Source: a virus
Taxonomy: Duplodnaviria > Caudoviricetes
Direction: 5' to 3' (one strand)
IMG/VR virus record: IMGVR_UViG_3300031998_000039
Location: 1 to 64,000 of that record
Length of the DNA stretch: 64,000 nucleotides
A program made the translations under genes and the position numbers. Every line of letters begins with the position of its first letter. Position 1 is the stretch's first letter. Under the pieces are notes generated by a model. It had not been told where the DNA came from. It made no database searches and saw only the letters and a list, made by a program, of their open reading frames with translations. Shown here one piece after another: positions 39,580 through 53,749 of the stretch.

Positions 39580-39588
39580 GTGAGGCTT

Positions 39589-40641
39589 ATGATAGAGGTT
39601 CAACTTAAAGATAGTATGGCAACCATACAAAAGAAACTGAATAAAGGCGGAGAGATCCATTTTCAAGCTGGAACTTATAGAATCACACAACAATTGATTA
39701 TCCCATCTAATACGACAATTTATTTGACAGGAGCAACGCTTCGAAGATGTGCTAATATCCAAAGCATTTTTCTGAATAAATGTAAGACAAGCACTAAGGG
39801 TTATAAGGGCGCCGGAAACATAAAGATACAGAATGGGACAATAGAAGGAATGGGTAATTATGGGTATGATAACCTTGTCACATTCTTTCATGGACACGAT
39901 ATCGAGATAGTTGGGGTGACCTTTTTAGACTTTCTATGTCATGCAATAGAACTGAATGCCTGTCAGAATGTATTGATTACTGGATGTGCCTTTAAAGGAT
40001 GTAACACAAAAGAATCGTATAAAGAAGTTATTCAGCTTGACGCAGCTTATACTGTTGGATTTTGGCTTAATGGAAGTTCAAAGAAATCGAAGTGTTATGA
40101 TGGGACAATGTGTAATAATATTAGCATAACTAATAATATCTTTACACGGTCTGATTATAGAAAACATCCTACGGCATGTATTGGATCGCACACGCAGTTA
40201 GTTGGTGGCAGATGTCATACGGATATTAAGATTGTTCAAAATGATTTTACTTGTAATGGCGGGAATTGTCTATCCTTGATAGGGATGAAAGACGTTCAGA
40301 TATTCTCAAACTATTTTAGGGGATGTGCCAGAGCAATTAAAATATGGGAAAAGGATGAATCGTATACGTTGACGGGCGAAAAAGTTAAGCCCGAAGTTAC
40401 TGATGGTGCGGTTGACCATGTGCGAATTATAGACAATGTAGTACAAGACTCTACTGGTTCTGTAAAATGTTCGGGAGTATATATAGATAATCTCAACGCA
40501 ACTGTTATAGATATCTATAGCAATAAATTTGAACGAGCGAGTGAATTTGAAAAGTATTATCTCTGCGTGGTTAATTGTAAACAACCACCTGATATAGATG
40601 TAAAGAATAATCAGAGTCGATTAAGAATAAAAGGATTATAA
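39589..40641 (+). CDS. Right-handed beta-helix (pectate-lyase-like) protein
   Basis: GGEIHFQAGTYRIT..L.IPSNTTI N-terminus; repeated N(I/V).I.NN stacks. Confidence 0.75.
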   Translation: MIEVQLKDSMATIQKKLNKGGEIHFQAGTYRITQQLIIPSNTTIYLTGATLRRCANIQSIFLNKCKTSTKGYKGAGNIKIQNGTIEGMGNYGYDNLVTFFHGHDIEIVGVTFLDFLCHAIELNACQNVLITGCAFKGCNTKESYKEVIQLDAAYTVGFWLNGSSKKSKCYDGTMCNNISITNNIFTRSDYRKHPTACIGSHTQLVGGRCHTDIKIVQNDFTCNGGNCLSLIGMKDVQIFSNYFRGCARAIKIWEKDESYTLTGEKVKPEVTDGAVDHVRIIDNVVQDSTGSVKCSGVYIDNLNATVIDIYSNKFERASEFEKYYLCVVNCKQPPDIDVKNNQSRLRIKGL

Positions 40642-40642
40642 C

Positions 40643-40724
40643 ATCGCTCCTCGATATGCGATTGATAAAAGATCGAGTTACAAATGTTTGTCGCTGTCCG
40701 ATATGCGACTAATAAGAAGTCGGG
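40643..40724 (+). ncRNA. Two tandem H-type pseudoknot repeats (47-nt period), CptI-like type III antitoxin RNA
   Basis: ATCGC-TC-CTCGAT-AT-GCGAT-TGATAAAAG-ATCGAG and GTCGC-TG-TCCGAT-AT-GCGAC-TAATAAGAA-GTCGGG; pairing preserved in both stems despite substitutions. Confidence 0.75.
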
Positions 40725-40753
40725 AAAGGGTGAACGAAAGTTTGCCCTTTTTT
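40725..40753 (+). terminator. Rho-independent terminator after the pseudoknot repeats
   Basis: AAAGGGTGAAC-GAAA-GTTTGCCCTTT followed by T residues. Confidence 0.85.
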
Positions 40754-40890
40754 CGCATTTTTTTTGATTACACAAGAAGGAACTCTCATACAGCATAAAA
40801 TAATGCTATTCCCTCTTTTTGATATTGTTACAAGTTGATTACTGTAATCAAGTGCGATTCTGAACAAGCCCATATTTCAAGGCTTTTTAA

Positions 40891-40910
40891 CGCACCTAAT
40901 GGGATTCGAA
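40891..40910 (-). other. Putative attP core (tRNA T-loop plus 3' acceptor strand, possibly tRNA-Arg)
   Basis: Minus strand reads TTCGAATCCCATTAGGTGCG, about 70 bp from the integrase stop; flanked by TTACA/GATTACAC repeats resembling arm-type sites. Confidence 0.7.
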
Positions 40911-40981
40911 TCGAAATCTAAATTGCCGAAACCCTTGATACACAAGGGGTTACACCCATTTTACAGTGCGTTTACATGTGA

Positions 40982-42169
40982 TTACACTTGATTCAGTTTA
41001 TTCTGAATTTCATAAATCTCTTCATTATTAAAATAGTAATGTTGTCTGGTGGTCAAGATGTTGGTGTGTCCCATTTGTTTGATAATAATCTTCTCACCAA
41101 CTCCTGCATCAAATAATTTGGTTGCATAGGTCTTGCGAATTTTATGGAATGATCTGAATGGTATCTGAACTAATCGGCATAAGGTTTCAATTTTATTAGA
41201 TAACCATGCAGCTTTAATACGCTGACCGCCACGTACAAACATCCACTCATATTCTCCGGTGTATTCTTTCAAGGCATCAAGAACTTGCTTTGCTTCATTA
41301 GAAAGGATTACACATCTTATTCCGTCACGTCCTTTGGTAAAGCCACGGACTTCCTCAATCCACTCTCCATGCTGACCTTTATACTTTATCTCTGTCCTCT
41401 GTACGATTAGAGTGTCATCTTGATAATCAGACCATTTCAGTGCTGATACCTCGCCAACTCTTAATCCCGTACAGAATGCAAGGGCTACACCCAATCCCAT
41501 CATGTCGGGATTAGCCTTAATATATTGCTTTATCTTATTCTCTTCTTCTTTAGTGAAGACTTGCTCTTCATCAAGTATAGTCTTACGTCTGAAGATTTTG
41601 CTTGACAACTGAAGTTCGGCAAGGAACAAGCTGATTCTCATATCAGTAAATCCATGTTTATGAGCATATATCATTGCCCCGCTTATCAGGATTCGCATGT
41701 TGCCCCAGTTCTTTGCGGTCAGATGCCCTTCAGCTATCTTCTGTTTGATGAATGTTTCAAGATAAAGTTCATCAATCTTTTTAACTTCTTTGTTTTCTAA
41801 CGCTGTCCCTTTGATATAGCGTTTATAGTCTGCCGTATATCTATCATAAGTCTGCTTTTGTATCTCCCCATACTTCAGCTTTTCATTAACCCATGAATCA
41901 AAGCATTCTTTAAAACTTATCTTGGGATCTTTCAGCATTTCGAAGATACCGTCCTCAAGAGCTGCCCTTGTACTCTTGGCGATTAATCTTCTTTTACCCG
42001 CTATCTCGACATAGGTCTTCCACCTACCATCGGATGCTAACCATATTTTTTGCTTGTCAAGAATCTGTTTTCTTTTCATATTTTCATATTCTTGCTGTAT
42101 GAGAGCAAGATTAATCATACCATTTTCTTGAGCAAATTGCAATAGGTTATCGCATTTTATAAGTATCAC
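40982..42169 (-). CDS. int: Tyrosine recombinase (phage integrase)
   Basis: TGLRVGE, HKIRKT, MGH, Y catalytic residues. Confidence 0.95.
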   Translation of the reverse strand: MILIKCDNLLQFAQENGMINLALIQQEYENMKRKQILDKQKIWLASDGRWKTYVEIAGKRRLIAKSTRAALEDGIFEMLKDPKISFKECFDSWVNEKLKYGEIQKQTYDRYTADYKRYIKGTALENKEVKKIDELYLETFIKQKIAEGHLTAKNWGNMRILISGAMIYAHKHGFTDMRISLFLAELQLSSKIFRRKTILDEEQVFTKEEENKIKQYIKANPDMMGLGVALAFCTGLRVGEVSALKWSDYQDDTLIVQRTEIKYKGQHGEWIEEVRGFTKGRDGIRCVILSNEAKQVLDALKEYTGEYEWMFVRGGQRIKAAWLSNKIETLCRLVQIPFRSFHKIRKTYATKLFDAGVGEKIIIKQMGHTNILTTRQHYYFNNEEIYEIQNKLNQV

Positions 42170-53400: not shown

Positions 53401-53749
53401 CTTCTACAAACTCCCATGCAATATTCTTGTATAGCCACTGTCTTGACATATCGCAAGCATCATATCTACTCATACTTTCAATATGGGGTTTAATTGTTCC
53501 ACTAATCTCCCAACCAATAATAGTTGCAGGAATTGCAGTGCATTGCATAACAATAAGATATTTGGTTGTTTGAATTACTTCTGCTTCATATACCACTTTA
53601 CAATGATGTTCTCTGCCATTGATATCATAATCATGCGTATTTAATTCATCACTGGCGTTAGCATAAAAAAACTTATCCCCAACTTTAACATGAAGCAGTT
53701 CGTTAGGTGTCAGTGCTTGCATACGTTTAAAGTCCACATAACAGTTCAT
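53384..53749 (-). CDS. Hypothetical protein
   Basis: SD AAGGAG; 121-aa ORF. Confidence 0.65.
   Translation of the reverse strand: MNCYVDFKRMQALTPNELLHVKVGDKFFYANASDELNTHDYDINGREHHCKVVYEAEVIQTTKYLIVMQCTAIPATIIGWEISGTIKPHIESMSRYDACDMSRQWLYKNIAWEFVEDDGEE

Follow-up and report, generated by a model that had tools for sequence, protein, structure and literature searches.

Arrays of cptI, the RNA antitoxin gene of the type III CptIN systems, have been described as comprising about 2–3 units of 40–48 nt, and the cptIN loci surveyed in the same paper were located on chromosomes in 33 of 33 cases and on phages in none of the 33 (Blower 2012, Table 2, PMC3401426). A survey published in 2025 stated that no type III systems had been reported in phages except one toxIN locus and the survey's own tenpN hits, and no paper describing a phage-borne CptI was found in the literature. 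In the solved CptI–CptN structure, two RNAs and two toxins form a closed 2:2 complex, with the two tails of every RNA running into a toxin, and CptN cuts the Eubacterium rectale antitoxin (CptI_Er) at UUGA^AAG (PMC4627078). In the ToxIN family, the Pectobacterium phage phiTE escapes the system via pseudo-ToxI repeats (Blower et al. 2012, PMC3475682), and these repeats are the only experimentally shown phage RNA antitoxin mimic found in the literature. Wild-type phiTE carries 1.5 repeats that form no full pseudoknot, are inactive, and leave the phage sensitive to ToxIN, whereas the escape mutants carry 4.5–5.5 repeats (PMC3475682).

The element presented here is located in a 64,000-nt stretch of DNA (the window) that belongs to a linear, 98,755-bp IMG/VR virus record with an estimated completeness of ~64%. 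Two H-type pseudoknot units on the plus strand compose it. In the first unit, R1 (40643–40677), stem S1 is formed by 40643–47 with 40658–62 (ATCGC/GCGAT) and stem S2 by 40650–55 with 40672–77 (CTCGAT/ATCGAG), with an A-rich loop at 40663–71. In the second unit, R2 (40690–40724), S1 pairs 40690–94 with 40705–09 (GTCGC/GCGAC) and S2 pairs 40697–702 with 40719–24 (TCCGAT/GTCGGG, with a G.U pair at either end), and the A-rich loop occupies 40710–18. The core CGATATGCGA and the 9-nt A-rich loop are common to both units, which are separated by a sole 12-nt linker on the same strand, TTACAAATGTTT (40678–40689), carrying the CAAAT motif conserved in the family; the R1–R2 period is 47 nt, and the whole element spans 82 nt. 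The repeats, their coordinates, the stem changes, and the 47-nt spacing were thus found in the sequence as the initial annotation had described them. The core pattern matched twice in the 64-kb window against 0.06 matches expected by chance, and two matches occurred in none of 100 shuffles. All 11 pairs form in R1 as well as in R2, with an uncompensated deviation at one near-invariant position only, and the A-U pair closing R1, although rare (AU in 1 of 138 toxin-linked repeats), is compensated. Nested-only folding energies gave z = −0.04 and −0.78 for the two units, but such folding cannot score pseudoknots.

The stretch 40643–40724 almost certainly encodes two tandem units of CptI, the pseudoknot-forming antitoxin RNA of the CptIN type III systems, without an accompanying toxin. 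No family of Rfam 15 matches the repeats, and ToxI, its sole type III antitoxin model, matched only elsewhere, at the level of noise (E = 8.3). The assignment was built from toxin linkage and covariation. A scan of viral contigs with the core pattern gave mostly chance matches plus one clear family, in which a promoter precedes one or two units and a terminator and then a gene of ~165 aa come after them. The products of these downstream genes are CptN, since they matched PDB 4RMO chain A ("CptN Toxin") at E = 1.5e-22 and scored 158–205 bits against NCBIfam NF047359 "CptIN family toxin" (cut-off 90). A profile of five CptN proteins was used to fetch 80 bacterial loci, from Lachnospiraceae, Oscillospiraceae, Veillonella, Enterococcus, Roseburia faecis, Blautia hansenii and others, and nearly all of them displayed the same order: promoter, leader, two ~46-nt units each flanked by a CAAAUGUUUG-type linker, terminator, ribosome-binding site, and cptN. 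The 138 distinct toxin-linked repeats from 86 bacterial and viral loci were then aligned (alignment A2). Their stems covary, with 97.4% of cells paired and both sides changing in 10 of the 11 pairs; none of 500 shuffles reached the observed level, and slid registers paired at only 20–39%.

A covariance model built from these 138 toxin-linked repeats alone, with the window excluded, and run with filters off over the 98.7-kb record, found R2 at 45.9 bits (E = 7.1e-8) and R1 at 30 bits (E = 2.5e-4), with no further match above 13 bits in the rest of the record. Compared by blastn, the entire array runs collinear with two-unit arrays of the canonical type (77–82% identity), and among the sampled toxin-linked units the best agreement over the 35 core positions is 31 for R1 and 30 for R2. 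Two units with a 47-nt period also fall within the published dimensions of cptI arrays. The alignment and covariance search against CptI repeats that had been proposed as a check of the original assignment to the CptI family thus upheld it, together with the linkage of the family to cptN elsewhere and the alignment with the E. rectale antitoxin.

For that alignment, the 45-nt unit of CptI_Er was taken from the reverse primer CptI-WT (Table 2 of Rao 2015, PMC4627078), the reverse complement of which agrees with all residues numbered in that paper (G13, G22–G24, A27–G35, U30, G44, and A45). Both R1 and R2, like the other units included, align to E. rectale CptI (PDB 4RMO) without a gap (alignment A3), and R1, R2, and CptI_Er have a common register: S1 (5 nt), 2 nt, S2 (6 nt), AU, S1′ (5 nt), a loop of 9 nt, and S2′ (6 nt). 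The CGAUAUG core and residues A29, U30, and A31 of CptI_Er are kept in the window units, and mutation of A29 or U30 abolishes CptI_Er antitoxicity (Rao 2015, PMC4627078). R2 additionally has the UG, CCGAU, and GUCGGG elements of CptI_Er; the layout UG-xCCGAU-AU-G..GUCGGG, which the initial annotation had given for E. rectale, proved to be correct according to the CptI-WT primer (Rao 2015, Table 2). At the same time, R2 differs from CptI_Er at the equivalents of A33 and G35. S1 is GUCGC/GCGAC or AUCGC/GCGAU in the window against ACCAC/GUGGU in CptI_Er, with all differences compensated; the period is 47 nt against 45 nt, and the linker is UUACAAAUGUUU against UUGAAAGUUU. By analogy with the E. 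rectale cleavage site, the predicted CptN processing site in the window would be UUACA^AAUG, between 40682 and 40683. Unlike the E. rectale CptIN locus, the window array has no promoter, no cptN, and one linker only.

The same departures were evident when the array was compared with the canonical cptI arrays of Clostridia, Veillonella, and Enterococcus and their prophages (L121–L200, L024, L034, L084, and L088). These also consist of two non-identical units with a terminator directly after them, but they possess a sigma-70 promoter, a leader hairpin, three CAAAT linkers, and cptN ~60–100 nt after the array. CAAAT is nearly invariant in the 138 toxin-linked repeats, whereas in the window it occurs in the internal linker only (one against the canonical three), and neither UUAUAAC, 5′ of R1, nor AAAGGG, 3′ of R2, resembles the linkers of the family. 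With one linker only, neither unit is releasable with both native tails, in contrast to the fully antitoxic single repeat of Rao 2015, and the window RNA could retain no more than one CptN, at a single site. The array has the terminator of a cptIN locus and lacks its own promoter (no promoter-like site was found within 300 nt upstream) as well as a downstream cptN; its transcription would thus have to come from the late operon, as a 3′ UTR.

The last gene of the late block, on the plus strand, is a tail-spike gene (39580–40641) that matched PHROG phrog_2234 at E = 8.8e-37 and, weakly, a pectate-lyase-like fold; a single nucleotide separates its TAA stop codon from R1. An intrinsic terminator on the same strand (40725–40765, stem-loop 40725–40750) adjoins R2 with no linker intervening; it was identified by a terminator scan and consists of an 11-bp stem, a GAAA loop, and a U run (−13.4 kcal/mol, z = −3.58). 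This terminator ends the late transcript. Its stem is extendable (40715–40762) by ~10 weak pairs that use the 3′ strand of R2 S2 and the U run; as the extended stem takes in this strand, the R2 pseudoknot and the extended terminator may compete. Farther downstream, a partial tRNA-like match on the minus strand (40891–40910), corresponding to the 3′ portion of a tRNA (T loop and the 3′ strands of T stem and acceptor), marks the attP core, and a tyrosine integrase gene follows on the minus strand (40982–42169; Pfam PF00589, E = 5e-17). The strong terminator followed by attP rather than by a toxin gene, as originally reported, was accordingly recovered. The tRNA attB of the host would be expected to end in TTCGAATCCCATTAGGTGCG.

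Seven viral contigs with integrases 64–72% identical share the attP region, and none of them has a CptI unit; the same tRNA fragment adjoins the integrase in five of these relatives (L206–L210), and in one of them (L208) a homologous tail-spike gene is located next to attP with the array absent. Since the relatives share the attP region without the CptI unit, these sequence comparisons suggest that a temperate rumen phage acquired the array in its own lineage, by insertion near attP in the interval from the tail spike to the late terminator. Searches for close copies of the array returned little: the strict core pattern was found in viral contigs only in L060 and L078, the exact R1–R2 junction was not found in metagenome contigs, the tail-spike protein search gave no relatives, and blastn of the array region against cultured phages gave no match. 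The closest cultured phages have a DNA polymerase only 35–40% identical. Only two sequencing runs contained at least half of the stretch's words, both from one bovine-gut sample, possibly the record's own source, and there were no RNA sequencing runs among the runs listed as holding the stretch. Other rumen runs contained contigs with cptI arrays only ~88–90% similar, in an apparently canonical context. Separately, the attP region (40780–40980 in the window, and L206–L212) was observed to contain a conserved imperfect hairpin at ~40780–40830 besides the tRNA fragment, and L211 and L212 carry a different tRNA fragment, which suggests a switch of integration target.

The initial annotation had presented the array as toxin-free, and this claim withstood a search of the whole record: with the CptN profile, NF047359, and the ToxN model PF13958, no toxin, and hence no cognate cptN or toxN elsewhere in the phage, was found in the 98.7 kb (~64% of a complete genome). 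As a positive control, the same CptN profile matched known loci at E values of 1e-70 to 1e-90. Two candidates were rejected: a tblastn match to CptN at 53450–53683 was weak and attributable to chance (hhalign probability 2.7%), and a match to NF047359 inside the tape-measure ORF reached 12.3 bits, far under the cut-off of 90.

Toxin-less CptI is not confined to the window. CptI-like units with no cptN in the record were identified in a 122-kb phage genome with terminal repeats (G002, locus L060; completeness 100%), a 167-kb genome with terminal repeats (G004, L087; 100%), a provirus (G003, L053; 94%), and the records G009 (L052; 99%), G010 (L043; 100%), and G001 (L079; 77%). The units of G009 and G010 (the L004 group) match the covariance model weakly, at 20–26 bits. 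In L079 and L087 a promoter, both linkers, and a terminator are recognisable, whereas the window copy forms part of the 3′ UTR of a late gene. Two unrelated viral contigs (L053:1089–1600 and L079:1628–2437) have their toxin-less CptI immediately upstream of a complete toxIN locus with its own promoter, ToxI-like repeats, a terminator, and a ToxN gene (PF13958), so that the antitoxin RNA of one type III family adjoins an entire system of another. Furthermore, 13 contigs of 90–160-kb phages (L052:5700–6480; L004, L008, L009, L031, L043, L047, L050, L068, L071, L081, L095, and L100) share a ~750-nt conserved non-coding region that includes one CptI-like pseudoknot (20–26 bits) with non-canonical flanks; this region gave no Rfam match, and no cptN was found in two complete genomes of such phages. 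Complete cptIN loci were also seen on viral contigs, beside a tyrosine integrase (L034:3208–5826), beside a serine recombinase (L024:368–3113), and in L088:11993–14585, where two cptIN modules stand in tandem. Bacterial chromosomes also contain toxin-less units: four metagenome contigs (L217, L219:8800–8960, L221, and L223) have a single hybrid CptI unit and a terminator without cptN. This hybrid unit is nearly identical to the L216/L220 array and adjoins a Phd/YefM type II module, and the L217-type locus has the look of a toxin-antitoxin island from which the toxin was recently lost.

What the window array does, if anything, has to be judged against this background. The best single reading, to which we assign a probability of about 0.5, is that by analogy with phiTE it acts as an RNA decoy or antidote against the CptN of the host or of a resident prophage. 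The array would be transcribed as the 3′ UTR of the late (tail-spike) transcript in a cell where the host or a resident prophage carries a matching cptIN, and CptN would bind and cut the single R1–R2 linker. After the cut, the native tail would be at the 3′ end of R1 and at the 5′ end of R2, so that CptN would stay held between the two pseudoknots, and the phage RNA would replace the decaying CptI of the host and keep the RNase quiet until the phage cycle is completed. The match to the CptI family, the retention of all pairs and of A29/U30, the lack of a toxin, the accessory nature of the insertion, the similar phages, and the phiTE precedent all count for a decoy. Several points count against it. 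As there is no promoter, expression depends on the late operon, and the array has one processing linker in place of the canonical three. CptN is specific for its own CptI (PMC4627078), and the sampled toxin-linked repeats, which match R1 or R2 at 31/35 positions at best, pointed to no cognate toxin or host. Abortive infection by CptIN has yet to be demonstrated (PMC3401426, PMC4627078), and two cptIN loci gave no phage resistance in E. coli (Blower 2012, PMC3401426); wild-type phiTE, with its 1.5 repeats, was inactive. Finally, a recent capture would likewise leave the stems intact, and the CptI remnants without toxin in bacterial chromosomes mean that toxin loss alone does not imply function.

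The main rival of the decoy is that the array is a neutral leftover, functionless now: an 82-bp scar of a cptIN module at an attP-proximal accessory site, or a fragment brought in by illegitimate recombination. We regard this as a plausible but somewhat doubtful explanation. Full cptIN loci on other viral contigs adjoin integrase or recombinase genes, at sites similar in kind to that of the window array, and the chromosomal contigs L217, L219, L221, and L223 illustrate that a single CptI unit and its terminator can persist with the toxin gone; the window array is devoid of a promoter and outer linkers, and because no close relative with the array was found, its conservation cannot be shown. 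A scar should, however, be reconciled with the lack of any remains of promoter, leader, or cptN and with a space between stop codon and terminator that is filled exactly by two intact pseudoknots. Both units, moreover, keep their 11 pairs and the residues critical in CptI_Er, the rare A-U closing pair of R1 is compensated, and toxin-less units are kept in complete phage genomes elsewhere. We consider it very unlikely that the array is half of a working toxin-antitoxin pair with cptN in the ~36% of the genome outside the record: although the record is linear and ~64% complete, cptN starts within ~100 nt after the array terminator in all 86 of 86 canonical loci, whereas here attP and the integrase follow the array and the 98.7 kb contain no toxin. 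The position of the array between stop codon and terminator, without a promoter, would also suit a role in cis, as a 3′-UTR element stabilising the late mRNA or defining its 3′ end, either independently of a toxin or with host CptN as a processing enzyme only. Such a role is similarly improbable, because the sequence family is otherwise tied to cptN and L208, which has a homologous tail-spike gene next to attP, has no such element.

A decoy directed at two toxins need not be invoked. According to the initial annotation, the two variants may neutralise different CptN toxins; R1 and R2, however, are identical at 27 of 35 core positions, which lies within the range of two-repeat arrays serving a single cptN (23–35 shared positions, median 29, n = 63). 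Compensatory stem changes are frequent in those arrays as well, and divergent, compensated units are therefore normal for one toxin. The first unit of the canonical arrays (L121–L200) commonly has GUUGC/GCAAC and the second GUCGC/GCGAC. Note that the median identity of 29/35 between canonical units conflicts with published statements of nearly identical cptI repeats.

The window array and the pseudo-ToxI of phiTE are both copies of type III antitoxin RNA repeats that a phage carries without the toxin, with the reservation that the genome in which the window array was found is 64% complete. They differ in that phiTE mimics the ToxI family and the window array belongs to the CptI family, and in that both pseudoknots of the window array are complete, with one processing site only. 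The function of the phiTE repeats was demonstrated, whereas that of the window array is predicted from sequence. The CptI RNA family and the principle of mimicry are known; the involvement of the CptI family, the late-gene 3′-UTR position, and the trimmed one-linker form are new. Because toxin-less CptI also arises by simple toxin loss, a single instance should not be over-read.

We tentatively propose, as a possibility short of probable, that phages of anaerobic gut and rumen Firmicutes routinely carry toxin-free CptI decoys, that the window copy is a minimal form, trimmed to two pseudoknots and one processing site within the 3′ UTR of a late gene, that CptIN is a genuine anti-phage or inter-prophage exclusion system, and that such mimicry is widespread. 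A natural toxin-less CptI in a phage would extend the mimicry principle to a second type III family, and a phage countermeasure would be indirect evidence for an anti-phage role of CptIN. If the proposal is true, CptIN would serve its native hosts in the exclusion of phages or of one prophage by another, a role not demonstrated to date, and RNA antitoxin mimicry would be a widespread natural counter-defence rather than the laboratory escape route of one phage.
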